Source: Candidatus Eiseniibacteriota bacterium
GTDB lineage: Bacteria > Eisenbacteria > RBG-16-71-46 > CAIMUX01 > VGJL01
DNA: 64,000 nt
Reading direction: 5' to 3'
Assembly (NCBI GenBank): GCA_041946735.1
Contig: JBHGAY010000016.1
Location: 32,001 to 96,000, forward strand
Translations under genes and position numbers: made by a program
Shown here: positions 31,406 through 57,964 of the stretch, piece by piece
How the letters are laid out: each line of letters starts with the position of its first letter
Numbering within the stretch: the stretch's first letter is position 1
The notes under the pieces: generated by a model
Databases searched by the model: none
Told to the model about the DNA's origin: nothing
The model's input: only the letters and a program-made list of their open reading frames with translations

Positions 31406-32956
31406 ATGCCCCTTCGCAATCGCGTTCGCTCACTTTCCATCGCGGCGATCCTCTGCGCCGTCTCGACTCTCGGTTCGATAACGGTCGCGGCCCCCATCGG
31501 AACGGAGATCACGTATCAAGGCGCGCTGCAAGACGGGGGATCGCCCGCGAATGGCTCGTATGATTTCCGCTTCCGTCTGTTCGATGCTATTTCCGGCGGG
31601 AATCAGGTTGGATCTGGTGTCGCGGTCGAGAACCTGGCCGTGGCAAACGGCGTCTTCACGGCCGTCATCGACTTCGGCCAAAACGGATTCGGCCCGGACG
31701 GCCGCTGGCTCGAAGTCGGAGTCCGCCCCGGTGCCGATTCCGATCCCGCTCCCTACACGATTCTGACTCCCCGGCAACAGGTAACGGCGTCGCCCGTCTC
31801 CCTGTTCTCTCTGGGGTCGGGCGACAATCACTGGTCACAGAACGGTAGCGCCATCACGAACAACAACGATGGTTTCGTGGGCATCAACCGATCGACCAGG
31901 GTGACGACTTCGGAGTACTTCGGCGTTCAAGCGGCCACCAACGGCTATGGCGGAATGTACATGGCGACCGACGGGGCGGAAGGTCTGCCATTCTATGGTT
32001 ATTCCACGGGAGCCAGGAGCGCGTGGACCTACCTGGATGGGGCCAACGGGAACTGGTTCGTGCACAACGGGGCCGACCGGGTCGTCGTCACGAGCACGGG
32101 AGAGGTCGGCATTGGAACACTCTCGCCGGACTACCGTCTCGAGGTGACGTCCGGCGACGGAGACGCCATCCATGGATCGACCACCGCGGCATTCTCGGCC
32201 GGCATTTCGGGCACGGGAACGACTGCGGGGGTGAGCGGGATTTGTGGCACGAGCAATGGGTCCGGGGTCTTCGGCCAGAACAACAGCGCGTCGGGGACGG
32301 GTGTCCGAGGCGAAACCAGTGGGAACAGCGGAGCGGGTGTTGCCGGCTATGCCCCGTCGGGAACCGGCGTGTACGGCCAGACGAGCACCGGCTATGCCAT
32401 CTACGGCAGCAACGGCGGCAGCAACCTGAGCGGCTACGCCGGCTACTTCAACGGGCGAGTGCACGTCGCGGGGATTCTCTCCAAGGCGAGTGGGTCGTTC
32501 AAGATCGATCATCCGCTGGACCCGTTGAACAAGACCCTGAGCCACTCGTTCGTGGAGAGCCCTGACATGATGAACATCTACAACGGGAACGTCACGACCG
32601 ACGAGAAGGGACTTGCCCGTGTGGATCTCCCGGGATACTTCGAGGCTCTCAATCGCGACTTCCGCTATCAGCTCACCGTCCTCGGAGAGTTCGCGAATGC
32701 AACGATCGCGGAGGAAGTGAAGGACAACTCGTTCGTGATTCGCACCGACAAGCCCAGCGTGCGTGTGTCTTGGCAGGTGACAGGCATTCGGCACGATGCC
32801 TGGGCGGCCGCGCACCCGATAGTCGTGGAAGAGGAGAAGTCCTCGGCAGAGCAGGGACACTACATAAATCCCGGCGCCTACGGCACGGCAGATCTCGGAA
32901 GCGAGATGGCGACGCCTGCCGCCGATGCGGTCTCCGCCGCGGGGACGGCCCGATGA
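31406..32956 (+). CDS. Secreted 'ITYQG' N-domain protein with Gly-rich GVxG repeats and a tail-fibre-like SFKIDHPLDP C-terminal domain
   Basis: Signal peptide, ITYQGAL...YDFRFRLFDA...GVFT...WLEVGVR...LTPRQ; GEVGIGT; GVYG repeats; YQLT. Confidence 0.8.
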   Translation: MPLRNRVRSLSIAAILCAVSTLGSITVAAPIGTEITYQGALQDGGSPANGSYDFRFRLFDAISGGNQVGSGVAVENLAVANGVFTAVIDFGQNGFGPDGRWLEVGVRPGADSDPAPYTILTPRQQVTASPVSLFSLGSGDNHWSQNGSAITNNNDGFVGINRSTRVTTSEYFGVQAATNGYGGMYMATDGAEGLPFYGYSTGARSAWTYLDGANGNWFVHNGADRVVVTSTGEVGIGTLSPDYRLEVTSGDGDAIHGSTTAAFSAGISGTGTTAGVSGICGTSNGSGVFGQNNSASGTGVRGETSGNSGAGVAGYAPSGTGVYGQTSTGYAIYGSNGGSNLSGYAGYFNGRVHVAGILSKASGSFKIDHPLDPLNKTLSHSFVESPDMMNIYNGNVTTDEKGLARVDLPGYFEALNRDFRYQLTVLGEFANATIAEEVKDNSFVIRTDKPSVRVSWQVTGIRHDAWAAAHPIVVEEEKSSAEQGHYINPGAYGTADLGSEMATPAADAVSAAGTAR

Positions 32957-33498
32957 GATCCGCGCCGATTGTCCTCGCCGTCTTGGCGGCCTTGTCGGTG
33001 TTCAGCGGTGCCGGACAGGCTGAGGTCGCTATGCAGCGCTTCACGATGGACGGCGGGGGTGGGACCAGCTCTGGCGGAACGTACGCGCTGAGCGGAACGA
33101 TTGGGCAACCAGATGCAGGAGCGCTGTCCGGAGGAACCTATGCGCTCGCCGGTGGCTTCTGGTTTGGTGGAAGCGCAACCAGCGGGATCGAGCAGGATCC
33201 CTCGCCGGGGAACGGTGCGTGGATCACCGGCATCAGCCCGGCCGCTCCCAATCCGATGCGCGGTCAATCCGTCCTTGCTTTCCGCCTCGCCAGGCCGGAA
33301 GTGGTGCATCTCGAGATCTACAACATCGGAGGGGAACTGGTGCGCAACCTTTTGCGTGAGCCGCGTCCGGCGGGATCGTACCGGCTGGTCTGGGACGGGA
33401 AGGACGATCGAGGATCCGAGGTCGCGAGCGGGTTCTATTTCGTCCGATTCGTCACCAGTGAGCATGAGGACACCCAGAAGCTCCTGCTCGTCCGCTAA
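32953..33498 (+). CDS. Small secreted DGGGG/SGTIGQ-domain protein with FlgD-Ig CTD
   Basis: FTMDGGGG...YALSGTIGQPDAG...GGFW then PNP...WDGKD...SGFYF; ATGA overlap with the upstream gene. Confidence 0.82.
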   Translation: MRSAPIVLAVLAALSVFSGAGQAEVAMQRFTMDGGGGTSSGGTYALSGTIGQPDAGALSGGTYALAGGFWFGGSATSGIEQDPSPGNGAWITGISPAAPNPMRGQSVLAFRLARPEVVHLEIYNIGGELVRNLLREPRPAGSYRLVWDGKDDRGSEVASGFYFVRFVTSEHEDTQKLLLVR

Positions 33499-33551
33499 TC
33501 GTCGCGTAGACGACGCCGGGAATCCACGGTTCGCCTTCGCGTGCGGAGTTG

Positions 33552-33586
33552 TCGAGGGTGGGGGAGTGAAACTCCTTCACCCTCGA
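33552..33586 (+). terminator. 16-bp stem-loop downstream of the two-gene operon (possible terminator)
   Basis: TCGAGGGTGGGGGAGT / GAA / ACTCCTTCACCCTCGA with two G-U pairs; weak U-tract. Confidence 0.45.
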
Positions 33587-33899
33587 TCCGTTGTAGTAGT
33601 CACGACTTGACCTTAAAGGTCCCCCCCGTGCTCCCGTGCTATTCCGTCGGACGTCGTCATGGCTTCCTCCTTGTGCCTCTGTTTCGACCACAGAGATCTC
33701 TAGCACAGAGGGGAGCGTGACGACACTGGCTCCCCAGGAAGGCCTTCCGCCTTCCGGAAGGTCAACTGCCAAGCAAGAATCGGACTACCCCAGATGCGTT
33801 GCTGGCAGCCCCGGCACATACCTCCCGTACTCAAAAGGCAGGTCATGGTAGAATTTGCAGCGCGAAACGTGAGTCGTTCGGCAGTAGGTCGGTTCCGTG

Positions 33900-34939
33900 C
33901 GAAACAGGCCGCTTCCGAGGACTCGCGTTGCTCGGCGTGTGCTCCAAGAACGTCGCAGCTCCCGGTTCAATGGTGATCGCCGGGGACCACATCTACGTCT
34001 CCAATACATTCAAAGCGGACATCTACAGGATCCTCGCCTCCCATCTTCCGGAGTGGGTGCGAACCTTCGACGAGGCGTGGATCGACATCGCGGTCCGGGG
34101 CTCCCACGCCTATCTGACGAGCGAGGTCGGCTTCTACGGGATCCGGGTGATGGATCTGTCGACACCAGAGGTGCCGGCCATCGTCAACGATGCCCTGCCA
34201 GGACATCGTCCGGGAGATCACGCTGGGAGAGGCGCACGCCTATACGTGCGGCGAGGGGCAAGGGCCGGATCGTCTCCTGGATGCCCGCGAGGGGCGTGGT
34301 CGAAACAATCGCCGGGGACAGCGGATCGTGCACGTCGATGACGTACAGGTAGAACAGATCCGGCTCTGGGGCAGGCCCAACATTGCCACGCTCCGCGGCG
34401 CGGTCCCGGTCTGCGAGGTCGAAGACCCGCAGTACCTCTACATTGGCGGAGAGCGTCTCACAGTCGTTGATGCGCACGACCCGCTTACCCCGCGTGTTCT
34501 CGGGAACCTCGGCCCTCCTAGCGAGGTCAACGCCATCATCGCCCTGGACGAGTACCTCTTCACGACCGGCGCAGGCTGGCAGGAGGGGCTCGTTGTCCTG
34601 CCGGCGCCGTGCAACCCGGCGCATGCGATCGATGACGGCTCGCTCCTCGGTCTTCGGGACGGTCTGCGCCTCGGCGCTCCATACCCGCAGCCCTCCGCCG
34701 CGGGGATCACCATTCCCCTCGATCTGCCTGCCGACGCAACCGCGCGCGCGAACGTCTACGACGCGGGGGGGCGACTCGTACGCGCGATCGCCACCGCCTC
34801 TCTCGGGCAAGGCGGCCGGCAGGACATCGCCTGGGACGGCCGGGACGACGACGGACACCGCGCGCCCGCCGGGGTCTACCTGGTGCGTGTCCGCGCGATG
34901 GGAATCGAGGCGACGTGCACCGTCGTACTCGCGCACTGA
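33900..34939 (+). pseudogene. Degraded LVIVD-repeat/FlgD-CTD gene: 5'-truncated, frameshifted and with an internal inversion
   Basis: LVIVD repeats in two + frames (shift near 34190) and on the - strand at 34259-34432; intact CTD to TGA 34939; no signal peptide. Confidence 0.7.
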
Positions 34940-35173
34940 CGCGCTGACGCCGCGCCGGCGTGCGCGCGGTCACCGTGGCGAGGGCACGATGCAGGGCCGC
35001 CAGAAGAGAATGGCTTTCCGTCCGATGCTGCATCCGGTGATGTCCAGATCCGCGGCAACACGATCCAGTATCCGAGCCCACGCGGGTCGATCGCGCTAAC
35101 GAAGAGCGCGGAGGCGGAACTTCTCTCCGTCCCCGCGCTCGTCTGCCGGACGATCGGGATCCGTGGCCGAATC

Positions 35174-36862
35174 TCAGCGGAGCAGGACGACCGGCCTCCT
35201 CGCCACCTCGCTCCCGTCGCGCATCACACGGACGAAGTACACGCCGGCGGGCAGTCGCGTTCCGTCTGAGTCCCGCCCGTCCCAATGGAACGCGGACTCC
35301 GGCCTGTTGCGGAGGAGCCGTCCCGACGCGTCATAGATCCGGATCTCGATCCGGCTCCCGGGCTCCGTAGAAGAGAAGGCGATGCTCGCGGATCCCTGGA
35401 ACGGGTTCGGAGCGATCCGCAGTCCCGAGATCCAGGAAGTGTCTTCGTAGATGCCGGCGGCAGGGCATCCGATCCCGAAGGCGCCGATCAAGCCGCAACC
35501 GGGAGGCGACAGGTCGGGCATGCAGGGGGAGTCGCGTTGGAGCGTGAAGTCGTAGGCGGATGGATCGCAGAAGAGAGGATCCTCACTGATGTTCCCGTCG
35601 AGGCCGGTCGGATCCTGACAGACGCCGCCATAGTTGCCGTTCGCATGGCCGTACGCATCGTTGCAGTCGAAGTCGATCATGCCCTGCCCGGCGCAGGTGA
35701 AGCCGGCTCCCTCGCTTCGGTTTGCATAGACGATGTTGCGGGAGAAGCTGGGGGTGGAAGCGCCGTAGACGGCGACCCCTCCGCCATCGACAAGGGCGAC
35801 GTTTCGGGCAATCGTGTTCTCCGCCACGGATCCGTAGCAGTTGTGAAGGAAGAGACCGCCACCTTCGCCGCGAATTGGATAGTTCTCGTAGGCGGAGCTG
35901 TCGGTGTTGGCGGCGAAGAGGTTCCGCTCGATCCTCACGCCGCACTCGTATGCGTAGAGAGCTCCTCCTTCTGTCGCGCGGTTCTCGAGGAACCGATTCT
36001 CCAAGATCGTCACGTCCCCGCAGCTCTCGAGATAGATTGCTCCGCCTCGTGCGACGGCGTCTGGTTCGGCCTGCCAGCCGATCGTCTGACAGTCCGCAAA
36101 GAGGTTCCGCTCGATCTCGATCCGGCCGGGCACCGAAGATGCCTCAATGGCAGCCCCTCGTCCCGAGATGCCGTCGTCGCTCATGGCCCTGCAGTGGAGG
36201 AAGAGGTTGTCGTGGATCGCCGCGGCGGGGGCGAGCACGTTGACCCCTACGGTTTCGATGAACTGGTTCGACTCGATCCCAACCCCTCCGGCATCGACCT
36301 GCACCGCAGGGTTGGTGTAGAACCAGCGCAACTCGTTCTCTCGCACGATGGCGCCCGGGCCTCTCACCCAGACGCCGCCCCCCCAGCCGTGGTGTTCGAG
36401 ATTGTTGTCCTCGATCACGACTTCTGCAGACTCCTCGAGGATCGTGATCGCCCAGCCCATGAAGCTGACGATGTTGAACCCCTCGATCCGGCTGCGTGAT
36501 CCATGGACGAGGATCGTCGACTCCCAGTCATCGAGGACGAGCGTCGCCTTGGCCGAATAGACGGAGAGCAGCGTCACGTCGGAGCGCGGCATGGTCAGCC
36601 CTTGGGCGCCAAGGTCGTAGCCACCGGGCCAGACCGCGACCGTGTCGCCAGGCTGCGCCAGGTCGAGCGCTTCTTGCACGGTCGGGATCTCGTTCGGGAC
36701 CTCCCAGGTCTCGGCGTACGCGATCCCGGCCACAAGCGCGAGCAAGGTAAGACAGACGGAGAGGCGGTTAAGAGGATGGAGACAATAGAAACGGTGGAAA
36801 CCACCGAGACAGACAGGGCCGGCGCGAGCCGATCTTGCCGTCGGTCCCGTTTCCTGGTTCAT
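35174..36862 (-). CDS. Secreted right-handed beta-helix (pectin-lyase-like) protein with FlgD-Ig CTD
   Basis: PTVQEALD...GDTVAVWPG, repeated IxxNxF, GGAI; GNISEDPLFC; PNPF...WDGRD...GVYFV; AAGGAGG RBS. Confidence 0.82.
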   Translation of the reverse strand: MNQETGPTARSARAGPVCLGGFHRFYCLHPLNRLSVCLTLLALVAGIAYAETWEVPNEIPTVQEALDLAQPGDTVAVWPGGYDLGAQGLTMPRSDVTLLSVYSAKATLVLDDWESTILVHGSRSRIEGFNIVSFMGWAITILEESAEVVIEDNNLEHHGWGGGVWVRGPGAIVRENELRWFYTNPAVQVDAGGVGIESNQFIETVGVNVLAPAAAIHDNLFLHCRAMSDDGISGRGAAIEASSVPGRIEIERNLFADCQTIGWQAEPDAVARGGAIYLESCGDVTILENRFLENRATEGGALYAYECGVRIERNLFAANTDSSAYENYPIRGEGGGLFLHNCYGSVAENTIARNVALVDGGGVAVYGASTPSFSRNIVYANRSEGAGFTCAGQGMIDFDCNDAYGHANGNYGGVCQDPTGLDGNISEDPLFCDPSAYDFTLQRDSPCMPDLSPPGCGLIGAFGIGCPAAGIYEDTSWISGLRIAPNPFQGSASIAFSSTEPGSRIEIRIYDASGRLLRNRPESAFHWDGRDSDGTRLPAGVYFVRVMRDGSEVARRPVVLLR

Positions 36863-37140
36863 GGATGGGCCTCCTTTCCAGGAATCGGTTGCGCGATCAG
36901 CCTCCTGCGAGCGGGGATAAGTCTACTCCTCCGGGGCTCCCCGATCCATCAAGCGTGGGGCTAGCCTCGAGCGAGCCGGCCGGCCAGCGCTCGGGGCCGA
37001 ACGAAACCCCGGCCTCGCGCTCGCCAGGCCGGGCCCTGCCCGCGCACCATGCGAGTACCCCTGATCGATGCAGCAGGTGATCGTTCCAGGTAGGGGGCGG
37101 CGGATCCGTTTGTGCAGTGCGCGGAGAGGCTTGGATCATT

Positions 37141-37902
37141 TCAGGCGAACATCGATCCCCCTCCCGTGACGTCGAGAATCAACCCCGTGATCCACCCGGC
37201 ATCGTCGGAAGCCAGGAACAGAGCCGCCCGGGCGACATCCTCCGGCGTCCCCAGCCTCTGGATCGGATGGACCTGGGCCAATGCCTGCCTCTGCTGCTCA
37301 GGAATCCATTGAAGGTTGCGCTCCGTCAGGATCGTTTCTGGGGCGATGCAGTTCAGGCGGACCCCATGCGGTCCCGCCTGAGTGGCGACGTCCAGCGTCA
37401 GGATCTGGACCCCAGCCTTCGCCGCGGCGTACGCGATCGGTGAGCGCGGGTGGGCCATTCGTCCACTCGTCGAAGAAATCGTGACGATGTTGCCGCTCCC
37501 GCGTTCCTTCATGCCGGGGAGGAAGCTCTTGATCGTGAGGAAGGTCGCCGTGAGATTGGCATCGATCGATTCGCGCCATTTCGCTTCGTCGATCTCCTCC
37601 AGCGGGCCGGGTGGGATCGGGCTGCCTCCAGCGTTGGCCACGAGGATCCCTACCGGGCCAAGCTCCTCCTCGATGCGATGGCGCATAGCTTCGATCTCAT
37701 CGAAGCGTGTGACGTCCGCCGCAACGGTGATTGCGTGGCCGCCGGACTGCTCGATCTCGGCTCTCACGGCGTTCATCGCCTGTCGATCCCGCCCATGTAC
37801 GGCGACACGGGCTCCTTCTTCGGCGAATAGCCGTGCGATCGCGGCCCCGATGCCGCGCGAGCTGCCGGTGACGAGCGCGACCTTGTTCCGCAAACGATTC
37901 AT
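37141..37902 (-). CDS. SDR family NAD(P)-dependent oxidoreductase
   Basis: TGSSRGIG, ANAG, YAAAK, WITG. Confidence 0.92.
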   Translation of the reverse strand: MNRLRNKVALVTGSSRGIGAAIARLFAEEGARVAVHGRDRQAMNAVRAEIEQSGGHAITVAADVTRFDEIEAMRHRIEEELGPVGILVANAGGSPIPPGPLEEIDEAKWRESIDANLTATFLTIKSFLPGMKERGSGNIVTISSTSGRMAHPRSPIAYAAAKAGVQILTLDVATQAGPHGVRLNCIAPETILTERNLQWIPEQQRQALAQVHPIQRLGTPEDVARAALFLASDDAGWITGLILDVTGGGSMFA

Positions 37903-38198
37903 GGTGGGCCTCTCTTGGTTCTTCCGGGATCTTCCTCCGGGGGAGCGGCATGACAGAGAGACATCGACCCGATCATCAGAGCGTTGGAGGCTCGGCTCTG
38001 TCAACAAAGGCGATCTCGGCGAGACCGATGAGCGAGACTCGATTTGTCACCGATGTGCCGGTCCCGACGCGCCGGTCGCAACACGGGGCGTCAACGACGC
38101 GCGAAGAAGCTCTTCCCCTAGGGGCCAGCTGGCACTAGCCTGAACGCGCGTCCGCATGCGTCGGGCATGAGGGCATGGGAAAGGGAGGGGAGGAGAGG

Positions 38199-38780
38199 AT
38201 GCCCGAATCGTCCCTCAAGCCGGCCAATCCGGCTCCACTGGGCCTTGTCGGATTCGGTTTGACGACTGTCGTCCTGAGTTCCATCAACGCTGGACTGCTC
38301 AGCCGCGACGCGCTGCCCGCTGTGATCCCGCTGGCGTTCGCCTTCGGCGGGCTGGCGCAGATCTTCGCCGGCTTCATGGAGTTCAGGAACGGCAACACCT
38401 TCGGAACCGTCGCCTTTACATCGTACGGGCTCTTCTGGTGGTGGTTCGCGCTACTGCACTGGACGATCGGAGCGGGACTGATCCAGGCGCCGTCGTCTAC
38501 GGGGCTCGGGGTGACGTTGCTGCTCTGGGGAGTGTTCACCCTCTACATGTGGATCTCGACCTTCCGGTCGGTCTTTGCACTCTGGACAGTGTTCCTGCTC
38601 CTCTGGATCACCTTCTTCCTGCTCGCGGGCGGGGACTTCGGATGGGGCACCGGTCGGTTGGGAGGATGGGTCGGTCTCGTCTGCGGTCTGAACGCGATGT
38701 ACGTTTCCTTCGCGGAGGTCGCGAATCAGACATTCGGGCGCGCAATTCTGCCGCTCGGGTCTCCGCTGCTGAAGACCTGA
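38199..38780 (+). CDS. satP: Acetate uptake transporter, SatP/YaaH (GPR1/FUN34) family
   Basis: NPAPLGL signature, FGGLAQ, GNTFG...SYGLFW. Confidence 0.88.
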   Translation: MPESSLKPANPAPLGLVGFGLTTVVLSSINAGLLSRDALPAVIPLAFAFGGLAQIFAGFMEFRNGNTFGTVAFTSYGLFWWWFALLHWTIGAGLIQAPSSTGLGVTLLLWGVFTLYMWISTFRSVFALWTVFLLLWITFFLLAGGDFGWGTGRLGGWVGLVCGLNAMYVSFAEVANQTFGRAILPLGSPLLKT

Positions 38781-38789
38781 CGGACCCCC

Positions 38790-38930
38790 GGCGGGGATCG
38801 CGCGCAGCTCGCGCCGGAGGACCTTGCCGGTCGGGTTGCGCGGCATCGTTTCCAGACGAATCACCCGCCGCGGAAACCTGGTGGGGCGCGAGGTCCTCTC
38901 GGCAGTAGGCTCGCAGCGCTGTTTTCGTCG
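38790..38930 (-). pseudogene. Frameshifted remnant of the C-terminus of an AMP-binding (acyl-CoA synthetase) gene
   Basis: ALRAYCREDLAPHQV, one extra base at 38874-38876, then PRRVIRLETMPRNPTGKVLRRELR (A10 motif). Confidence 0.7.
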
Positions 38931-39108
38931 AAGCCTTACTGCTCCCTGGAGACCGTCCACGACTCCGGCCCGACGCGCCACTGCGCGCACGCCCTCGCGG
39001 CCTGCGGAATGCGCGCGCCACGATGCGTCGTTGCGCATCCTGGCCGTCCGGACCTCATCCTCTCGGTGGCCGGGCAGCTGCGCGATGCCCCGAGTATCGC
39101 TGCTCGAG

Positions 39109-39873
39109 CTATGGGCAGTTCGCGTCTCCAGTCCGGCAGAGTTGCCGGTCATCGAAGTAGTAGCAGCCGCCTTCCGCGCCAGCACGGTACTGGATCGTCC
39201 GTCTGCCGCCGCCGGAGTAGCCGACCGTGATGGTGCCCTGTTCCCGGCTTCCCTGAATCGCCCAGTTGCCGGCTCCTCCCGACTGGCCCGCGGCCCCCCA
39301 AGCCATCGTCTGGTTCCCCAGTCCATCCGTCGAAGAACCGGAGTAGCTCGACTCGCTCGAGTCGAAGAACTGTCCGTCCGGGCAGAGCGTGATCTTGCTC
39401 TCCGTCGATCCTGAATATCCCCAGTAGGTGCCAGCCATCATCTGCGCCAGTTGGGGATCGCTCGGTCCGGCATCCACTGTCGGTCCTTTCACGGCGGCAT
39501 CGAGAGATCCCTTCACATAGTCCATTCTCCCGTCCGACGCGCTCAAATCGATGTCGAGCCGGACGTTCTTGTCGATGAGGACGACGTCTCGCGTGATCGA
39601 TCCGACCTGGACCTGATACTTTCCGGCGGGTAGATGATCGAAGCCGTACTTACCGAACAGGTTCGTCTGATCGGTCGCGATGGGTTGGCCGGTCGATGCG
39701 TCAACGAGGACCACTTGCTCGGACGAAGCCGCTTCCGTTGAAGACTTGCCGACGAAGCCGCCGATCTTGAGACCGGCGTCTCCGGCGATGCCAGGCTCCG
39801 GTCGGGAAGAGCAGGACGCGACAAGCAAGGCAACGGTAAGAAGTCCGACGACGGTGACAAGTCTCTCAGTCAT
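39109..39873 (-). CDS. Lipoprotein with carboxypeptidase-regulatory-like (CnaB-like) domain
   Basis: Lipobox LVASC; TNLFGKYGFDHLPAGKYQV; GGAGG RBS. Confidence 0.75.
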   Translation of the reverse strand: MTERLVTVVGLLTVALLVASCSSRPEPGIAGDAGLKIGGFVGKSSTEAASSEQVVLVDASTGQPIATDQTNLFGKYGFDHLPAGKYQVQVGSITRDVVLIDKNVRLDIDLSASDGRMDYVKGSLDAAVKGPTVDAGPSDPQLAQMMAGTYWGYSGSTESKITLCPDGQFFDSSESSYSGSSTDGLGNQTMAWGAAGQSGGAGNWAIQGSREQGTITVGYSGGGRRTIQYRAGAEGGCYYFDDRQLCRTGDANCP

Positions 39874-40687
39874 TTTCGGGTCCCTCCAGCCTACATTGGC
39901 CGGGTGCAAAGATAGTTCCGATCCTGTTGGCCTGGCAAGACAGGGAACCGGCAGATAGGGGGCGGCCGACGGTTTCGAGGCCACCGTCGATCGGCGCGAC
40001 CGTGGTCCTGGTCTTCTCTTCGCTAGATTGAAACGGGAAGCAGGATATCGGTCACGATTCCGCGAACGGCGGAAACTGCGTCTGCGTTCGTGGAGGCGCA
40101 GAATCGGATCACAGAATCCGAGTCGGAGGCGCCGGGCACTCGTGCTCGTCGTCGGGTCGACGAACCTGACCGAGGCGGCGCTCGACCGGAACCTGGGGGT
40201 CGGCCCTCCGGTCTGCGCCAAGGCGCCGTGCAATTCGGCGTGACCTGGTCAGGACAGCGCGGGGGACCCGAGCGTTTGGTCTGCCGTCGGCCGGTCCTGC
40301 AAGGATCGTCGCAGGGATTGGCGGCACCATCCCCGATCAGACGGTACGATCCTGGGCCTCTCCCGGCTCGCGGGGCGCGAGGCCTTGGACCGTCGTTGCG
40401 CATGCGGCGGAGGATCCTTCCTTTCCGGCAAGGCTGACAAAGACCCGACCACCGGCGGCCTGACCGACCGCGATCGGTCCCCGGGCTTCCGACTCCCCAA
40501 CGGCGCCCCTCCGATACTCGTCCCAAAAACCATTTGCATGTTCCGAGGGCCGATCGCGCATGAGCGATGTTGGACCGGCGCGAATCGACCTCGACTCTGG
40601 CTTTGCTCGACCGCGGATCGACCGCGCCACGGGAAATGGGAAACGACCCGTCGAACCGAAGGGAATCGGATCGACAAGGAGAAAGAG

Positions 40688-41194
40688 ATGTCGTCTGCAA
40701 GGAAGCTCATGACGGTTCTCGGTCTGATCCTGGCGCTTGGCGCTCCGGCGCTGACCTTCGCGGATACGAACTGGACGGCGCACGGGGCAACCGGATCGCT
40801 CGATGAATCGAACATCGATCCCAATGACTTCACCAAGAGCACCGGCGGTCTCGCGCGGCTGAGCACCTTCACCGGGACGCTGATCGCCTACTGGACGGTC
40901 GAGAACGTGGACGCTCCGAACACTCCGACTTGGGACACGCTCTCGCTTCTCAACTACGACAACAGCACCTCGGATACCATCCGGGCATATCTGTACCGAA
41001 TGGACCGAACGACTGGCAATGTCAATCTGGTCTCCTACGTTTCGAGCACCAACTCGTCTTCGACCAAGTACGACACGGCGACCTTCACGCACAGCTGGGA
41101 CTTCGACCGCTACACCTACTTCATCTACGCCTATATCAGTGGTTCGGACACCTCCGCGCAGCCGATCATCCGCGCGCTGACGGTCCGTGACTGA
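40688..41194 (+). CDS. Secreted hypothetical protein (Ser/Thr-rich, beta-rich)
   Basis: Signal peptide, AAGGAG RBS, strongly biased codon usage. Confidence 0.75.
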   Translation: MSSARKLMTVLGLILALGAPALTFADTNWTAHGATGSLDESNIDPNDFTKSTGGLARLSTFTGTLIAYWTVENVDAPNTPTWDTLSLLNYDNSTSDTIRAYLYRMDRTTGNVNLVSYVSSTNSSSTKYDTATFTHSWDFDRYTYFIYAYISGSDTSAQPIIRALTVRD

Positions 41195-41275
41195 TCCGGG
41201 GACCGGCAATACGAGCCCTGTTGTCGAGATCGAGAGAAGAACGATCCAAAGGGCCGCAGAAAAGGAAGAACTTCG

Positions 41276-42106
41276 ATGATGGCAACACTGCTACGAGGTA
41301 AGGGCGCAGGGAAGCCGGGAGGCGGCGGGTCGGCGATCCCGAGACCATGGCTGGCGGTGCCCGCCGTGCTGGGTCTCCTGTTCGGTGCCTCCGCCATCGC
41401 GGCTGCCGAGCCCGTCGATGACGAAGCGAGCGCCAGCGATCATTTGGGCTGGGTGCTCATCGACACAGCAGGTGGCACCCGTGAATGGGTCGTCGCTCCT
41501 CCGGAGCCGGGGACGCCGCTGGTGTCGGATGAGACCCTCGCGGTGGATCCGGTTCAGGCGGGCAATGCCGGTTGGATCGGCATCGTGTCGGACAGGGGAA
41601 CCGAGGAGTGGGTGGTTGCCCCGCCTCCTGGTGCCGTGCCGGGCGATGTGACGGCGGCCGACGCAAGCCTGGTCGACGAAGAGGCGGCCGTCTCCGAGTC
41701 GAGGCAGGACTGGGTCTATCTGGAGACGGGACCCGGGTGCGGCGAGTGGGTGGTTCGGCCCCCATCGGCGTCGGGATCTTCGGCCTCTCTTGCGAACGCG
41801 GCGGGCGCCGGCCTCCGGCTCGACGCCGTCCCGCCGGTCGTTGCGGAAGGGGAGAGGGTGACGTTCTCAACCAAGGACAACCGCGTCTCCTCGCTTCAGA
41901 TCCTTGTGTTCGACGTGACAGGACGGCAGGTGTACCAGAGCGCCGACGAGCCAGGCGGGACGGTCCGGTGGGATCTTCGTGACGATCGGGGGGCGCCCCT
42001 TTCCAAGGGGATGTACTTCTACAGCGCAAGCGGCCGGACATCCGCCGGCCGTCTGCAGTCCGCCAACCCGGGTAAGTTGCTGATCCTCGGCAGCGCTTCC
42101 AACTGA
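41276..42106 (+). CDS. Secreted protein with three W-x8-G-x2-EWVVxPP repeats and FlgD-like CTD
   Basis: WVLIDTAGGTREWVVAPP, WIGIVSDRGTEEWVVAPP, WVYLETGPGCGEWVVRPP; VFDVTGRQV...WDLRDDRG...GMYFY. Confidence 0.72.
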   Translation: MMATLLRGKGAGKPGGGGSAIPRPWLAVPAVLGLLFGASAIAAAEPVDDEASASDHLGWVLIDTAGGTREWVVAPPEPGTPLVSDETLAVDPVQAGNAGWIGIVSDRGTEEWVVAPPPGAVPGDVTAADASLVDEEAAVSESRQDWVYLETGPGCGEWVVRPPSASGSSASLANAAGAGLRLDAVPPVVAEGERVTFSTKDNRVSSLQILVFDVTGRQVYQSADEPGGTVRWDLRDDRGAPLSKGMYFYSASGRTSAGRLQSANPGKLLILGSASN

Positions 42107-42322
42107 GGCGAAGGGGGAACGAAGCGCACGCGTAACGAAGATCAGCCGAGTGCGCTCTGACCAGAAGGCAGAGCGAGGGGCCGCCGGCACAGGGAGGTGC
42201 CGGCGGCTCAGTACGTGGCCCGTTCGGTTCCCGGATCGACGATTTCATCGGGGGGGGACGTAGAACCGGCGCTCGTGCGGTCACACGAGCGCCGATCCCC
42301 GTTCTCGAGCCTTATCCGCGTG

Positions 42323-42430
42323 TTAGCCGTAAAGGCCCTTGACGTGACCCATGACGTGCGCTCGACCGCCGTGGGAGCGCCGGGGTGGAAGAAGAGGTTG
42401 GCGATCACGTACGCCTCGGCCGCAGTGCGC
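42323..42430 (-). pseudogene. 3' remnant of a gene with the SWGxVK C-terminal tail (1-nt deletion)
   Basis: Minus strand ...PTAVERTSW, then after restoring one G: GHVKGLYG-TAA (stop 42325-42323). Confidence 0.6.
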
Positions 42431-42507
42431 CTCCGCCGCAGCGCGAATCGTGGTAAAATGTCTGGCGCGGCGGTCCCCCCGGAACGATTACATGGAGGGA
42501 AATGCCA

Positions 42508-44559
42508 ATGCTTCGCAAGCGGTCTGTCTGGGCGTTCCTCGCGGTCACGCTAGTCGCTCTCGGCGCGTCAGCGTCTTCCGCATCTGTCCCGCGGGTCGTC
42601 GTGCTCGAGTCCTTCGGCTCAGTCCTCTGAGACTTCTGCGTCGGAGCCCGGTGCGGGCTCCAGGCTTTGCAGGCGGACTACGGGTTCGATTCGGTCGTCC
42701 ATTTCGAGCATCACGTCAGCGAGACGGATCCGTTCTGCACGGACGAGACGCTCGCCAGGTACGAATGGTACGGGGTCAACGGCGTGCCGGCCGTTGTGAT
42801 CGACGGCTCATCGAGGGTCCTGGGAACCACTAACTGCGCATCCGCGGGCAGCAAGTTCCGTAACGCGGTCAATCAGAGGATGGGTGCGACCGGGTGGACG
42901 AGCCCGGTCCGCATCTCGGCGCACATGGGGGTCGAGGGAGCCTTGGCCCGGGTCACGGCGAACTACGCGCTCGTCGATCCCGTAGCGCTCTCGAACCTTC
43001 GCGCGACGTTCGTCTTATACGAGGACAACGTCGAATGGTGCTGCGGATCGGGAGAAGTCCACACGTGGCACGGAGTGACACGGCGGATCCTGACGGAACC
43101 GATCGTCCTCCAGCGTATCGGGGACGAAGCGACCGTCACGATGGCGTTGCCGATCGACCCAGGATGGGACGCGGGAGAGCTGCACGCCGTCGCGTTCCTT
43201 CAGGACTCCGTCTCCAAGGAGATCTTCCAGGGACAGGTGGTTCGCGATCTCTCGGTCGTCTTCCTCTCCCACATCGACTCCGTCCCGGACGGTTCCGCCG
43301 CCGTTCATTTCCCCGGGACGTTGCGCAACCTCCTCGCGACCGAGGCGGAGTTCACCCTCCGGATCACGAACCCGTTCGGGGACTGGCCGACCGAGTTCTT
43401 CGTCGGCGGAGACCCGCAGCCGCACACGGCACCGTTCCGTCTGGCGATCGCCCCGGGCGGATCTTGCGATCTCGCTCTCCACGCCCGCACCGACACGAGC
43501 AAGGTCGCGCGTAGCGGCACGTTCGAGGTGACCTGTGAGAGCACGGGTTCGACGGAGCGCAACGACTTCCGCGTCTTCAACGGGACGCCCGCCGTGATCC
43601 TCGTGGATCATGACTGGGGGAGCGCCTATGAGGCCTCGATGATGCGCGCCCTCGGCGCGAACGGCGTTCTCTTCGATCGATGGAACGTCATGACGCGGCG
43701 AGGGACCCCTCCGCTCGGGAAGATGAAGGGGGCGGACATCGTGATCTGGTTGAGCGAGGGCGCGGTCACCGACGTGCTGACGGACGGCGACGCCGTTGGG
43801 CTCTCGGCGTTCCTCGATTCGGGAGGCGCCCTCTTCCTCGCGAGCAACTACTACCTGAACGCCCTCCAAACACAGGATCCCTCATTTGCGCGAGCCTACC
43901 TCGGCGTCGACTCCGGGAATCTCGACCTGGGATACCGCAGGATGGACGGCGTCGCGGGGGACGAGATCGGTGACGGCATGGTCCTGCCGCTCATCTTCCC
44001 CCACGAGGAGTGGGCCTCGGGAGGGGACGGCATCGTCCCGACGGAAACCGCGACGACCGACTTCGTCGCGGAAGGGGGCTCCCGCGCGATGATCCGAAAC
44101 ACCACGCCCGGGGGCGCCCGGTCGGTCTTCCTTGCCCAGCGCTTCGACGCGATCTCCGAGGACGATCCAGATCCGGACAACGCACGGACCCTGGTGAGGC
44201 GCATCTTCGACTGGCTGCGTCCGCAAGGGAATGCCGGCCTCGATGATCCGCCAGGCGCGGACGCCCTGCGGGAGGGAGTTCGGATCGTCGATGTCATCCC
44301 GAATCCCTTCCGCGGCGGCGTGCGGATCGCCTTCTTCCTCCCGGCATCGGATGTGGCGATCCCTGTGCGCCTCGACATCCTCGATGTGTCGGGACGGCGA
44401 GTTGCGACGGTTCTTGACGAGACGCTCGCGCCCGGACCCCACGTCGTTCGATGGGAAGGCCGGGACGAGGCGGGGCGGCGCGTCGCCCGGGGAGCCTACC
44501 TCGCCCGTCTCGTCACGCCTGGCGGGACGAGCTCGGCGAAGGCGCTTCTTTCGCGGTAG
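42508..44559 (+). CDS. Secreted Omp28/thioredoxin-like selenoprotein (UxxC) with FlgD-Ig CTD, 683 aa
   Basis: GGAGG RBS, signal peptide, RVVVLESFGSVL-TGA(42628-42630)-DFC in frame with the 42667 ORF; YGVNGVPAVVIDG; hairpin 12 nt after the TGA. Confidence 0.82.
42643..42661 (+). promoter_or_regulatory. Bacterial SECIS-like stem-loop
   Basis: GGAGCCCG-GTG-CGGGCTCC perfect stem with G-initial apical loop about 20 nt 3' of the in-frame UGA. Confidence 0.75.
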
Positions 44560-44749
44560 GCGAGCGTCCATGGGCCGCCGCTGGATCTCGAGTTCGAGAT
44601 CCGCCTGCCGGTGTCCAACGCGCAGCCACCGGCATCGAGAACCGGTGAACCGAGGATCGAGCAACCGCCTTGTCTTCTCCGCAGGATGACAGCAGCGGAA
44701 GCAGGATCAGGAATAGAGAGAGCGCGCGCACAGCGAGTAGCCGAGTCAT
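44513..44749 (-). pseudogene. Possible truncated lipoprotein gene
   Basis: MTRLLAVRALSLFLILLPLLSSC lipobox with GGAGG RBS and ATGA coupling to an upstream frame; runs into the convergent gene end. Confidence 0.35.
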
Positions 44750-45070
44750 GGGACCTCCGCAGCTTCGGACCTGACGAACGCGACGTGGAAGGTCATACCC
44801 TCGCCTCGCTGGAGTTCTGGTAGATCCGTCCGGAGCTGGCTGCAATTGACCTTCCCGTTGACGCTGCCCGGCCGCACCGGATTGCTGGAGCGGGACGCCG
44901 GGTGACAACCCCGCTGAGACGGAGAATCACTTTTCCCCGCACACCGCGTGCGCTTTTGCCGTGCTCCTTCGTTCCACCAGTGATAGAGCACCGCTCGGCC
45001 GCAACCGGAGGGCCTGCTCGCGCCCCCGGCAGGAAGCCAAGACGACGAAGCGAGGAGGGAAGGAGAAGCG

Positions 45071-45643
45071 ATGAAACCAGATCGAATCGCGGCGCTCGTC
45101 GCCCTCGGACTGGCGGCCTTTGGGTCGCCGGCCCTGGCAGACGAGTTCGCCATCCCGTGGTGGACGCTCGACGGTGGCGGAACGGTCGAAACGTTGGCCG
45201 GCGGTGGCTTCGCCGTCTCCGGAACGATAGGACAGCACGACGCCGGGCAGCCCATGATGGGCGGCACCTACCAGATCCAGGGCGGCTTCTGGACGGGGGC
45301 GCTGCGAATCGCGAGCGATGTCGCCGAGCAGGATGTCGAGGGCTCTGCGGGAGGGACGGGAGGCCTCGTCTTCGGCCTCGACGGCTCGGCGCCGAATCCG
45401 TTCCGCACACGGTCGATCGTCTCGTTCGAGCTGCCGAGCCGGCAGCCCGTCAATCTCGCGATCTTCGATCTTTCCGGGCGGCTGTGCCGCACCCTGATCA
45501 ACGAAGACGTCGAGGCAGGCCGGCACGAGCGCATGTGGGACGCGCGCGACAACGAAGGCCGCGAGGTCGCATCCGGAATCTACTTCGCGGTCCTCTCGAG
45601 CCCGCTTGGGCAACAGCGCCAGAAGCTCGTCAAGATCCATTGA
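45071..45643 (+). CDS. Small secreted DGGG/SGTIGQ-domain protein with FlgD-Ig CTD
   Basis: WWTLDGGG...VSGTIGQHDAG...GGFW; PNPF...WDARD...SGIYF; paralog of 32953-33498. Confidence 0.82.
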   Translation: MKPDRIAALVALGLAAFGSPALADEFAIPWWTLDGGGTVETLAGGGFAVSGTIGQHDAGQPMMGGTYQIQGGFWTGALRIASDVAEQDVEGSAGGTGGLVFGLDGSAPNPFRTRSIVSFELPSRQPVNLAIFDLSGRLCRTLINEDVEAGRHERMWDARDNEGREVASGIYFAVLSSPLGQQRQKLVKIH

Positions 45644-45766
45644 TCCGATCGCCCGTCGACCCGCGTGCAATTCGATGCGATCTGCCTGCGGGATTCGTCG
45701 GGACAAAGTCCAAACAAGCAGGTCGGATCGGCGCAAGAAGCCGGGCCCGGCAGGAAGGGGAAGACC

Positions 45767-46744
45767 ATGTCTCTCAGCATGATTCGGAGGATGGCAGTAG
45801 CGGCAGCATTCGCCGCCGTTCTCAGCACGGGCGTTGCGCGGGCCACCGAGCCGGCCTCCACCGCGTTCACCTATCAAGGACAACTCACGCAGGCTGGCAT
45901 TCCTGCGGACGGAGTCTACGAGTTCGAGTTCAGGCTCTACGACGCGCCGGCTGAAGGCAACCTCGTCGCCTCGATCCCAGGCCCGTACCCCGCCACCGTG
46001 ACGGAAGGCCTCTTCACCGCCCGTCTCGACTTCGGCGACGCCGCCTTCACCGGCTTGCAGCTCTGGCTGGAGATGGGCGTGCGGCCGGAGGGCGATCCCG
46101 GTCCCTTCACCATCCTCAGTCCACGCCAGGAGCTCTCGGCAACGCCCTACGCGAGCGTCGCTCTGAACTCTCCGTTCCTTCGCGCTGGTTCTGGCCTCTA
46201 CTACGAGGGACGCATGGCGCTCGGAAGCGATCAGCCGCCAGTCGGGATCCTCGACGTGGTCGGTCCGCCTCATGATGCGACCGTGATCTTGCCGAACAAT
46301 GCGATCTCCTCGGCCGAGTGCTTGGACGAGCCTGGGATAAGCGGCGCCTTCGCCACCGGGGAGGTCTGGTTCACCAGCGCGCCGGTGACGTTGCGCACCG
46401 CCAGCATCGAGTGCCCGGGACCAGGGTATGTACTCGCTCTCGGCAGCACCGACCTGAGCGGGGTTGCGTACAGCTCGGCAGGCGGATACGTCGGAATCGA
46501 GAACACCGCCGACCCCGGTTCCTCGGCGCCGCCCGACGCCCGCTGGGTCATCTTCGGCGACGACATGCCGAGCATCTACTACTCCTGCCCGGTCTCTGTG
46601 AACAAGGTTTTCCCGGTGACCGCAGGAAACCACACCTTCTATCTCCGCGGATGGCGCGGGTTCGGGGACAACTCGCCGCGGGCGAACCGCGCCGGCCTGA
46701 CCCTTCTCTTCATCCCGTCTGCCTACGGGGCCCTGCCGCTGTAG
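45767..46744 (+). CDS. Secreted 'FTYQG' N-domain protein with a distinct C-terminal domain
   Basis: FTYQGQL...YEFEFRLYDA...GLFT...WLEMGVR...LSPRQEL; N-domain paralogous to 31406-32956. Confidence 0.8.
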   Translation: MSLSMIRRMAVAAAFAAVLSTGVARATEPASTAFTYQGQLTQAGIPADGVYEFEFRLYDAPAEGNLVASIPGPYPATVTEGLFTARLDFGDAAFTGLQLWLEMGVRPEGDPGPFTILSPRQELSATPYASVALNSPFLRAGSGLYYEGRMALGSDQPPVGILDVVGPPHDATVILPNNAISSAECLDEPGISGAFATGEVWFTSAPVTLRTASIECPGPGYVLALGSTDLSGVAYSSAGGYVGIENTADPGSSAPPDARWVIFGDDMPSIYYSCPVSVNKVFPVTAGNHTFYLRGWRGFGDNSPRANRAGLTLLFIPSAYGALPL

Positions 46745-46873: not shown

Positions 46874-47419
46874 TCACGCTAGTATTCGCGGGTCGCGCCG
46901 GCGTCCCGGGCCGAGCCGCATGACTGCGATCCGTCGAGAGGAGTGCGCTTTCTGGTTCCGCTGGACGAGCGGAAGTAAGCGTCGCACCGCGCGAGCGAAG
47001 AGGGCGGGCGAGGCGCTCGCGCGAGCTCTCGCGCTTGCACAATCCCTTCCGCTGGCGCACCGGCCGGCCTGACGGCAGGCGATCAGCATCCGCACAGCGT
47101 CTTGCGAAAGCCCGGTCTCCCGCGCGATCCGCGGGATAGGAGCGCCGGCGCGCGCGAGACGCGCGGCGTCGGCGAGACGTCCGTCCGAGGCGAGCGGGAC
47201 CGCACGACGCAGCCGTTGCGCCCGTCCGCGAAACGCGACGAACGGAACGACGCCGATCGCGATGATGGCTCCGGCGGCGAGCCCCGCTAACCCTCCGCCC
47301 ACGGCGATCCCGGATCGATCGAGCCACGCCGCTGCCGGTCCTGGCAGCTTCGGCCCGACACCGGCTACGATCAGCAGCCCCGCGGCCGTCGCGACGGCGC
47401 GCCAGGTCTTCCGGTTCAT
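46874..47419 (-). CDS. Small membrane protein with HTH-like segment downstream of fliA
   Basis: Two hydrophobic segments; ARLARAGAPIPRIARETGLSQDAVRMLI; ATGA overlap with fliA; 3' end uncertain. Confidence 0.55.
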   Translation of the reverse strand: MNRKTWRAVATAAGLLIVAGVGPKLPGPAAAWLDRSGIAVGGGLAGLAAGAIIAIGVVPFVAFRGRAQRLRRAVPLASDGRLADAARLARAGAPIPRIARETGLSQDAVRMLIACRQAGRCASGRDCASARARASASPALFARAVRRLLPLVQRNQKAHSSRRIAVMRLGPGRRRDPRILA

Positions 47420-48192
47420 GCCGCCTCCTCCTTCACTCGCTCCATCTCCGCGATCCGCGCTCGCAGACGTTGGATCGTCCTCGTGTGGATCTGGCAGATC
47501 CGCGACTCTGTCAGCCGCAGCACGGTCCCGATCTGCCGGAAGGTCAGTCCTTCGTGGTAGTGGAGGGCGAGGATCGTCCGCTCCCTCTCCGACAGCGCGT
47601 CGAGAGCCGCAGCAAGCTCGCGCCGCTCCTCTGCGCGCTCGATCTCCTGTCCCGGCTCGGCGGCGCTGGCGTCGGCGATCGTCTCGGCCATTCGCGGGCC
47701 GCGCCTGCGTCCTTCCTCGCCCGGCGACTCGAGGTTCAGGAAGACCGGCGCTGCGCCGTCGTCCGCCCATTCCCGGTAGGTGGCGACCGGGATCTCCATC
47801 TCCTCGGCGATCTCCTCGCCGGCCGGCTCACGCCCGAGCCTCTGCTCGAGACGCGCGCGCGCCGCGTCGATGCGTCGGTTGCGCTCGCGCGCCGTCCGCG
47901 GGATCCAGGAAAGGCTGCGGCTCTCGTCGAGGATCGCGCCGCGGATCCGTGGCACCGCGAAGGAGCTGAAGGCGAGGCCTCGCGCGGGATCGAACGACTC
48001 GAGCGCCTGGACGAGACCGATCGTGCCGGCGCTGACCAGGTCCTCCAGCTCGAGCGTCGCGGGCAGCCGCTTCGCCAGATCGCGCGCGGCGTGGTGCACG
48101 AGACCGAGGTACTGATCGAGGAGCAAGTTGCGCGTCGCCTCGTCCCCGTACGCGCGGTAGCGCTGCCAGAGCTGATCGGTCAGGCGCGTCAT
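47416..48192 (-). CDS. fliA: Flagellar sigma factor sigma28 (FliA/WhiG)
   Basis: EDLVSAGTIGL, PRIRGAILDE, LTESRICQIH. Confidence 0.93.
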   Translation of the reverse strand: MTRLTDQLWQRYRAYGDEATRNLLLDQYLGLVHHAARDLAKRLPATLELEDLVSAGTIGLVQALESFDPARGLAFSSFAVPRIRGAILDESRSLSWIPRTARERNRRIDAARARLEQRLGREPAGEEIAEEMEIPVATYREWADDGAAPVFLNLESPGEEGRRRGPRMAETIADASAAEPGQEIERAEERRELAAALDALSERERTILALHYHEGLTFRQIGTVLRLTESRICQIHTRTIQRLRARIAEMERVKEEAA

Positions 48193-48238
48193 CGGCCGCT
48201 GTCCTCGCCGCCCGCGGTGAAGGAAGTCTTCCAGTCCG

Positions 48239-53358: not shown

Positions 53359-53375
53359 CCCTCGCTTCTCCTAGC

Positions 53376-54454: not shown

Positions 54455-54479
54455 CGTGCTCGCGATCCTCCCTCTCCTG

Positions 54480-56806: not shown

Positions 56807-56808
56807 GC

Positions 56809-57945: not shown

Positions 57946-57964
57946 CGATGGCCTCATCGCGCGC

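Follow-up and report, generated by a model that had tools for sequence, protein, structure and literature searches.

A conserved gene pair in a Candidatus Eiseniibacteriota contig: a phage-tail-fibre-like protein and a small secreted partner as its candidate surface anchor

How could a protein built like a phage tail fibre be held on the surface of a bacterial cell, and what is the role of the small secreted protein encoded beside it? These questions are raised by a stretch of 64,000 nucleotides from a Candidatus Eiseniibacteriota bacterium (assembly GCA_041946735.1, contig JBHGAY010000016.1, positions 32,001 to 96,000 of the forward strand), hereafter the window, in which such a pair of genes occurs twice. 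We name the large partner A (A1 and A2) and the small partner B (B1 and B2). A sequence-only reading of the window had suggested an adaptor/cargo system in which the small protein, by means of its C-terminal domain (CTD), exports or anchors a fibre-like adhesin with an exchangeable tip. The analysis presented here leads us to propose, with a probability of roughly 0.55, that the pair is a conserved two-gene operon for a surface fibre with a swappable tip and for an anchor or adaptor that acts in trans on the base of the fibre. The two pairs and their parts, as open reading frames (ORFs) and as matches of hidden Markov models (HMMs), are the following.

31406..32956, plus strand: fibre gene A1 (516 aa), with a signal-peptide-like N-terminus (residues 1-29), a TYQG N-domain, a Gly-rich shaft and a phage-tail-fibre-like C-terminal domain.
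31493..31804, plus strand: TYQG N-domain of A1 (HMM E 4e-42), a predicted six-strand beta-sandwich directly after the signal peptide.
32486..32899, plus strand: C-terminal domain of A1 (residues ~361-498) with the SFKIDHPLDP motif, from the structural model and the phage tblastn.
32953..33498, plus strand: small partner B1 (181 aa), with a signal peptide, a Gly-rich DGGG/SGTIGQPDAG/GGFW module and a CTD.
33022..33162, plus strand: Gly-rich module of B1, ~47 aa, with a two-fold internal repeat SGGTYAL-x-G (HMM E 2e-25).
33247..33495, plus strand: CTD of B1, FlgD-Ig-like, a sorting domain of the type 9 secretion system (T9SS) type A (PF13860 E 1.8e-10; TIGR04183).
45071..45643, plus strand: small partner B2 (190 aa), with the architecture of B1; module 45143-45295, CTD ~45392-45640 (from the ORF, Pfam/NCBIfam, the alignment and the HMM).
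45767..46744, plus strand: fibre gene A2 (325 aa from the ATG), with a signal peptide; TYQG N-domain 45854-46156 and an unrelated 185-aa tip 46187-46741 (from the alignment and the HMM).

The ORF check confirmed the coordinates of both pairs, and with them the statement of the sequence-only reading that the pair is present twice in opposite gene order and is translationally coupled in its first copy. The TGA of A1 and the ATG of B1 overlap as ATGA, and the second pair has the reversed order with a spacing of 123 nt between B2 and A2, the reading frame of A2 being open from a GTG at 45665. Inspection of the translations by eye shows in all four N-termini a basic segment, then a hydrophobic stretch and then an Ala-x-Ala-like site. 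The alignment of A1 with A2 is limited to residues ~30-138, where 51 of 109 positions are identical (47%, E 9e-27), and no significant alignment was found outside the N-domain; the large partners do therefore have a common N-domain and unrelated C-termini, as had been described. B1 and B2 are 41% identical across 166 aa (E 4e-37). By six-frame tblastn, the whole window holds exactly two copies each of the TYQG N-domain and of the Gly-rich module, together with five CTD sites beyond B1 and B2 at E <= 3e-4, seven altogether. Neither A1 nor A2 matched any Pfam or NCBIfam family and therefore they bear no CTD, which agrees with the earlier remark that the large partners are devoid of a sorting tag. 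Scans for promoters and terminators near both pairs were uninformative, giving no promoter-like site and one terminator-like site on the opposite strand.

The adjacency of the two genes was then considered in other genomes. The sample comprises 79 loci of 223 confirmed matches from a scan of genome contigs with the N-domain alignment, and HMMs of the module and of the N-domain, built from the hits of the homologue searches, were run on all stop-to-stop ORFs of these loci. According to a hand tally of the record labels, 40 loci are from Chloroflexota, 32 from Planctomycetota and 7 from others (Eisenbacteria, Sumerlaeota, Blastocatellia of the Acidobacteriota, Heliomicrobium of the Bacillota, Hyphomicrobiales, one labelled Bifidobacteriaceae and one unclassified). 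The Gly-rich module is present in 60 of the 79 loci with a total of 64 copies, all of which lie on the strand of the nearest fibre ORF, 60 downstream of it and 4 upstream, the latter in the arrangement of the B2-A2 pair of the window. The distance between the end of the fibre ORF and the start of the module has a median of 110 nt (quartiles 96-160) and is mostly taken up by the signal peptide of the partner itself. The 378,167 nt at distances above 4 kb from any fibre ORF contain no copy, and the 64 are all in the remaining ~627 kb. Among the 19 loci lacking the module, 12 end 500 nt or less past the fibre ORF (L003, L024, L027, L029, L030, L037, L040, L044, L046, L054, L055 and L069), and in loci having at least 500 nt of downstream sequence the module is found in 60 of 67. 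The ATG of the partner could be assigned in 48 cases, with 14 ATGA overlaps with the fibre stop, 4 one-base overlaps and a median spacer of 10 nt. Thus the adjacency, on which the sequence-only reading had staked its case, is confirmed as a real observation far beyond chance. No third conserved gene was detected beside the pair, the next-best neighbour family occurring in 10 loci that, from the example loci, apparently belong to one clade.

The count of genes per locus is informative as well. Out of 61 partner genes counted, 46 are directly behind one fibre gene, 5 behind two and 2 behind three, with a gap of more than 700 nt in the other 8; because several fibre genes precede one B gene in 7 of the 61 cases, B cannot be specific for a given tip. 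The pair is also present in a cultured, non-pathogenic organism, since the only N-domain match in plasmid records is Haur_5099 ('hypothetical protein', N-domain HMM E 1.9e-26) on the complete plasmid pHAU01 of Herpetosiphon aurantiacus DSM 785. Downstream of this gene there is a 95-codon ORF with a signal peptide, the module (E 5e-13) and a FLPAAIR-type tail, whose ATG overlaps the stop of Haur_5099 as ATGA; the available gene table of the plasmid, which is declared incomplete, does not list this ORF. On this plasmid (locus L080) the pair is flanked by six glycosyltransferase genes of the opposite strand (1-5030) on one side and by a gene for a protein with integrin-alpha beta-propeller repeats (8453-10099) on the other, and the neighbourhood is therefore surface-related.

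Regarding the large partner, several lines of evidence support a fibre with a constant base and swappable tips. A search with the N-domain of A1 gave 395 proteins at E <= 0.001 among 783 candidates, and an exhaustive HMMER search with full-length A1 gave 35,640 cluster representatives at E <= 0.001 (7,276 at E <= 1e-30). The N-domain was found in all 149 newly returned top fibre representatives, and in nearly every one it begins among the first ~70 residues. Peptidase_S74 (PF13884) occurs in 21 of the 120 N-domain relatives listed, and also in 8 of 34 in another set; a T9SS CTD or FlgD_ig occurs in none of the 120, and 'tail fiber domain-containing protein' is the name borne by the few of these that have one. 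The AlphaFold2 model of the A1 monomer (56 sequences) has a mean predicted local distance difference test score (pLDDT) of 75.8. It shows the N-domain as a six-strand beta-sandwich, with values of 82-97 in 10-residue blocks over residues 31-130, followed by a Gly-rich middle of low to medium confidence and by a C-terminal domain mostly at 83-98, with one block at 51. In the ESM Atlas, proteins of Pseudomonadota, Verrucomicrobiota, Chloroflexota and Planctomycetota begin with the fold of the N-domain (template modelling scores, TM-scores, of 0.85-0.92 over 104-106 residues) and carry as tips Collagen, Sortilin-Vps10, Peptidase_S74, YadA_head, DUF7452, DUF1936 or FGE-sulfatase. In 22 of the 23 pairs of fibre paralogues within a locus, the N-domain is better conserved than the remainder (median 64%). 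A common base with an exchangeable tip, as the sequence-only reading had proposed from two proteins, is supported by the A1/A2 alignment, the S74 relatives, the tips of the Atlas proteins and the paralogue pairs. The N-domain profile matched no chain among PDB sequences, where the entries of Bdellovibrio fibres are C-terminal fragments only, and PDB sequence searches with A1, A2, B1 and the profiles of both modules gave chance-level matches or matches of the CTD to FlgD only.

The tip of A1 is related to proteins of virions. The C-terminal 176 aa of A1 have tblastn matches, at 34-37% identity, to genes for tail fibres or minor tail proteins in 14 of 50,697 phage records, including the tail fiber of Prochlorococcus phage P-SSM2 (E ~1e-9) and minor tail proteins of Arthrobacter phages; there is also a weak match of A1 to a PHROG tail protein (E 2.9e-4), and the A1 model has 75 matches in BFVD (E <= 0.001), of which most are tail fibre or minor tail proteins of phages. 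The description of A1 as tail-fibre-like was accordingly correct. Comparison of the model with the PDB by Foldseek gave as first match the Bdellovibrio fibre Bd2133 (8ond_B, E 5.8e-4, probability 0.89) and as second the R1-pyocin fibre (6cl5_A, E 9.4e-4), which are the only two at E <= 0.001; entries of the fibre Bd3182 and phage tailspikes appear lower in the list, and the TM-scores are low (0.12-0.15). Of the parts of A1, homology to virion tail-fibre proteins is limited to the C-terminal domain, the TYQG N-domain having no match among the same phage records. The Gly-rich module of B likewise has none there by tblastn, nor in plasmid records. The presence of phage homologues for the tip of A1, and for neither of the two conserved modules, fits a cell-anchoring base that replaces the virion-binding one. 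For the 185-aa tip of A2 no family match was obtained, and the Atlas leads to C1q/TNF-like, collagen-tipped and PTL_trimer clusters, all with scores below 0.9 (feature score 0.87, structure TM up to 0.58), that is, below the level at which they could be taken for more than leads.

The small partner consists, as had been described, of a Gly-rich domain and a FlgD-like CTD. FlgD_ig is scored at 41.1 bits in B1 and 34.1 bits in B2 (Pfam cut-off 27), and TIGR04183, 'T9SS type A sorting domain', at 26.2 and 30.5 bits (NCBI cut-off 23), while Por_Secre_tail PF18962 stays at 20.8 and 15.8, below its gathering score of 27. The C-terminus of B1 and B2 is therefore a T9SS type A or FlgD-Ig CTD that passes TIGR04183 and falls below the cut-off of PF18962. 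No Pfam or NCBIfam match was found for the Gly-rich part, and neither protein has a PHROG family at E <= 0.1. When B1 was folded alone (51 aligned sequences), the CTD had a pLDDT above 90 and its model matched the fold of FlgD structures as well as of PorU and PorZ chains; the module remained at 42-50 despite its strong conservation.

On one point the sequence-only reading has to be corrected: the constant part of the small partner is the Gly-rich module and not the CTD, and the C-terminus varies with the lineage. Of 1,166 candidates in a search with residues 20-80 of B1, 925 passed E <= 0.001, with lengths of 99-317 aa. All the small homologues examined have a signal peptide followed by the DGGG, SGTIGQPDAG and GGFW series of the module with a visible two-fold repeat, and only 8 of the 120 listed carry FlgD_ig. 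Out of 51 aligned partners, 9 have this domain and one has Dockerin_1 (E 3.9e-5). The FlgD-Ig/T9SS CTD is present in the closest relatives and in an Eisenbacteria genome (L001). Partners of the Verrucomicrobia type have, after the module, a beta-domain ending in FYRLxxP. The two most represented phyla of the locus sample have C-termini of their own, as follows.

Planctomycetota partners (L026, L028, L032, L033, L036, L038, L041-L043, L051, L058, L060, L067, L073, L076, L079): a dockerin-like domain of ~65 aa framed by Cys (LPADL-x-D ... DL ... WL), ending in CPYxWPL(K/R).
Chloroflexota partners (L002, L006, L011, L014, L015, L019, L022, L023, L047, L049, L053, L057, L074 and others; in L080 at 7965-8249): proteins of only ~95-100 aa with the motif (V/I)YLP(L/I/V)xx(R/K) at the extreme C-terminus; in the Dehalococcoidia/Tepidiforma variant the C-terminus is LPMLAKDGTN.

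We know of no named sorting signal resembling the YLPLxxR-type tail, which could represent a new anchor or a donor strand. The replacement of the CTD by other C-terminal elements outside this lineage fits an 'anchor of choice' better than an export adaptor specific for the T9SS. A further 22 module-bearing proteins are longer: 19 have the module at the N-terminus, on chains with large domains of their own, such as DUF11, He_PIG and Big_9, while 2 have it close to the C-terminus and 1 in mid-chain. As a separate observation, L078, a record labelled as a Bifidobacteriaceae metagenome-assembled genome (MAG), encodes at 9998-18076 three fibres along with two FYRLxxP-type small partners; as this type is otherwise found in proteins named after Verrucomicrobiae/Limisphaerales, the label and the content of that record look at odds.

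Based on these results we propose the following mechanism. Protein A would be exported by the Sec pathway and would presumably be a trimer, by analogy with S74-type fibres and with the mosaic adhesive trimer (MAT) fibres discussed below. Its base, formed by the ~105-aa beta-sandwich, is continued by a Gly-rich shaft and by an exchangeable tip that would point outward and may act as an adhesin or receptor-binding end. Protein B, also a putative Sec substrate, would contribute a ~50-aa module with no fold of its own, while its C-terminus would be the anchoring or sorting element of the particular lineage. We infer that the module binds the conserved N-domain of A, so that the base of the fibre would be fixed to the cell envelope in trans and fibres that differ in their tips could share one B. 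The lineage considered here is diderm, and in it B may provide A with the missing CTD, both for passage through the T9SS and for attachment; since the C-terminus of B is here a T9SS type A CTD, B could carry A through this system to the surface, as judged from the system of Bacteroidota.

We further explored the proposed contact by predicting the complex between the N-domain of A1 (34-row alignment) and residues 24-80 of B1 (50 rows). Three runs gave scores of 0.49, 0.49 and 0.50 against 0.11 for the best of three controls, a margin of at least 0.38, with at least 71% contact agreement and a partner pLDDT of at least 48. Of 157 solved complexes 116 reach the pass mark, as do 2 of 215 mismatched pairs; these counts are only a rough guide here because our own alignments were used. 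The prior for a contact is high, given that the operon is coupled and conserved. The score falls in the weak band, and the prediction lends weak support to the interface asked for by the sequence-only reading, here between the N-domain of A1 and the module of B1.

Several observations weigh against the proposed anchoring in trans. In the complex prediction, a score of up to 0.60 is given by only 18 of the 157 solved complexes and yet by both of the passing mismatches; of passes in this weak band, the majority are wrong when the guess had not been likely in advance; moreover, the module is still poorly folded in the complex model (pLDDT ~49), which shows no folding on binding, and the model covers 1:1 stoichiometry only. 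No fused protein of the Rosetta-stone kind was found, the N-domain being present on 0 of the 22 longer module-bearing proteins and no hit of the DGGG-HMM being reported among the 149 top fibre representatives. In 7 loci with at least 3.6 kb of sequence past the fibre gene no module was detected at E <= 1e-3; of these, L071 is masked immediately downstream, L064 gives a weak hit (E 0.0075) and no module hit at all comes from L010, L045, L052, L063 and L072. The census covers one direction only, from the fibre to the partner. The C-terminus of Chloroflexota partners is a short motif and not a recognised anchor. Among the scanned ORFs of the window there is no gene for the T9SS machinery (PorU, PorV, SprA and others). 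Finally, the identities of the N-domain and of the module correlate weakly in a mirror-tree style comparison (66 pairs, Spearman 0.24), a value that is explained by shared phylogeny, and this correlation was rejected as evidence.

Among the alternatives, the best placed, though unlikely, is that B assists assembly as a chaperone in the periplasm or outside the cell, comparable to the Tfa or gp38-type assembly proteins of phage tail fibres; it would aid the trimerisation or folding of the fibre and perhaps stay attached to it. A coupled gene directly downstream of a tail-fibre-like gene mirrors the fibre-chaperone pairs of phages, the Gly-rich module is disordered when alone, and the fold list of A1 includes the Mu tail-fibre-chaperone complex (5yvq), with E 0.03 and a probability of 0.14 only. 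A pure chaperone, however, would need no lineage-specific sorting or anchor domain, and many of the fibres possess in Peptidase_S74 an intramolecular chaperone of their own. B1 and B2 belong to no PHROG family and their module is absent from the phage records. Known phage chaperones act on the variable tip, whereas here one conserved B stands behind fibres of different tips. An anchor or adaptor is favoured over a tip-specific chaperone because one B serves several fibres, because the tips vary on a constant base and because the C-terminus of B follows the lineage.

Next in order, and also improbable, is a mere co-regulation of two surface or secreted proteins without mutual binding, B being for example an independent small surface protein engaged in the same process. 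Membership of an operon is by itself no proof of contact, and the weak complex score and the lack of fusions are compatible with this explanation, as is the N-terminal position of the module on chains with large domains in 19 of the 22 longer proteins, which points to other possible contexts. Against it, the extreme conservation of position and the ATGA coupling across distant phyla are typical of stoichiometric partners, a module with no fold of its own argues against an autonomous function, and the complex score lies above all three controls. It is very improbable that the pairs are remnants of a prophage or tailocin, that is, a tail fibre and an accessory gene left in the chromosome, in spite of the phage homologues of the A1 tip and the resemblance of its model to phage and R-pyocin fibres, since no phage-type family was found in the 10 neighbouring ORFs (34-45 kb) or in the 37 further ORFs of the window that were scanned, the neighbouring genes are cellular (CTD-bearing proteins, a dehydrogenase and a flagellar operon) and do not make up a tail cluster of a phage or tailocin, A and B alike begin with a signal peptide, phage records contain neither the N-domain nor the module, and the pair is kept as a chromosomal unit across phyla.

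With respect to known systems, the closest likeness is that to the MAT fibres of Bdellovibrio bacteriovorus (Caulton et al. 2024, PMC10769870). In the accessible text of that paper, all 21 MATs carry a beta-rich domain, conserved and ~130 aa long, right after the signal peptide, with no structural homologue in the PDB, a domain presumed to attach to an unidentified element of the surface; the tips, of S74 as well as non-S74 kind, are mosaic, and its Table S3 holds MATs from the FCB group and Omnitrophica, one of them FGE-tipped. The proteins described here share this order of signal peptide, beta-rich N-domain (~105 aa and predicted, in our case) and phage-like fibre, and they share the mosaic tips, S74 and FGE-sulfatase being among those found on the TYQG N-domain fold. 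C1q/TNF-like and collagen domains, to which the leads for the A2 tip point, are tip kinds reported for some MAT fibres. In addition, the best PDB fold match of A1 is a MAT fibre, Bd2133, and entries of another, Bd3182, are listed. They differ in length, 325 and 516 aa against ~600-1,900 for MATs (PMC10769870, in the text available), and in that the organisms concerned here are not known predators. The comparison is based on architecture and fold match. On these grounds the fibres look like a member or variant of the MAT-like, phage-tail-fibre-like adhesins, and the statement of the sequence-only reading that no function was characterised for the pair requires this qualification for the large partner.

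The same does not extend to the small one. The accessible part of the MAT paper (PMC10769870) mentions no partner gene, gene neighbourhood or secretion route, and no surface anchor of MAT fibres is announced in the accessible portion of the 'mosaic adhesive trimer' literature or mentioned in that of a 2026 review (PMC13689555). Full-text literature searches with the peptide motifs of the N-domain and of the Gly-rich module gave nothing, searches on tail-fibre-domain proteins in Planctomycetes or Chloroflexi nothing relevant, and those on Eisenbacteria, T9SS and FlgD nothing specific; a search that joined MAT and tail fibres with anchoring gave no paper. Within the limits of these searches, the partner gene and the two-gene unit appear to be undescribed.

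Three other systems share features with the pair. Phage tail-fibre genes are followed by assembly or adaptor genes in Mu and in further examples; the likeness to Mu (PDB 5yvq) lies in the order of a fibre gene and a small coupled gene and in the homology of the A1 tip, but the partner described here is secreted, bears a sorting or anchor domain and has neither a PHROG family nor a match in phage records. Cargo of the T9SS type A in Bacteroidota is secreted and attached to the surface in a CTD-dependent manner; B1 and B2 end in a CTD passing TIGR04183, which at least six other proteins of the window share, but in the present case the CTD belongs to B and the presumed passenger is another polypeptide, A; a T9SS cargo that relies on the CTD of a second protein is not known to us from the literature, no search aimed at it having been made. 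The 'choice-of-anchor' families of NCBIfam and cohesin-dockerin display join a conserved module to varied anchors, as occurs here with the lineage-specific C-termini, Dockerin_1 in one partner included; the module in question, however, has no NCBIfam or Pfam model and is tied to a specific neighbouring fibre gene.

The surroundings of the two pairs are in keeping with a cellular locus. The region 33800-44600, and also that further upstream, is dense in secreted proteins ending in a FlgD-Ig/T9SS-type CTD, which include beta-helix, Omp28-like, BNR/Ycf48-like and DUF362 proteins, and the organism appears to use this CTD widely. Family scans and tblastn place the CTD-bearing proteins as follows.

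34190-34939, plus strand: CTD-bearing protein.
35174-36862, minus strand: CTD-bearing protein.
41276-42106, plus strand: CTD-bearing protein.
42667-44559, plus strand: CTD-bearing protein.
20749-22080, minus strand: CTD-bearing protein.
24694-27081, minus strand: CTD-bearing protein.

About 670 nt past A2, and on the opposite strand to it, there is a flagellar export and regulation operon (47416-57996, minus strand) with a FliA-like sigma factor, a MinD/FlhG-like ATPase, FlhF, FlhA, FlhB and FliM, in which one ORF of 762 aa has both FliO and FliP domains. A [FeFe]-hydrogenase cluster (6191-17587, minus strand) comprises HydF, two radical-SAM maturases, a HydA-like enzyme and a NuoF-like subunit; at 11757-13760 an iron-hydrogenase large-subunit domain is joined to a histidine kinase, which may be a hydrogen-sensing kinase.

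The MAT paper leaves open, in its accessible text (PMC10769870), what holds these fibres on the cell, and the coupled partner reported here is a concrete candidate. The fibre family is very large, with 35,640 representatives, and yet neither its N-domain nor the Gly-rich module is covered by a Pfam or NCBIfam model; the new element is the coupled 'anchor of choice' partner. A broader possibility, which we put forward only tentatively and consider doubtful, is that the Gly-rich module protein is the missing surface anchor of the whole MAT-type superfamily, an adaptor for display across phyla that folds on binding and whose C-terminus is swapped according to the envelope (T9SS CTD, dockerin, YLPLxxR tail and others); if this were true, the lineages with a T9SS would be the first in which a cargo devoid of a CTD receives one in trans. 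If the anchoring proposed here is correct, it would explain how tail-fibre-like adhesins are displayed on very different envelopes, it would open two new domain families to annotation, and the pair would represent a modular scaffold with a constant base, a swappable tip and a swappable anchor.

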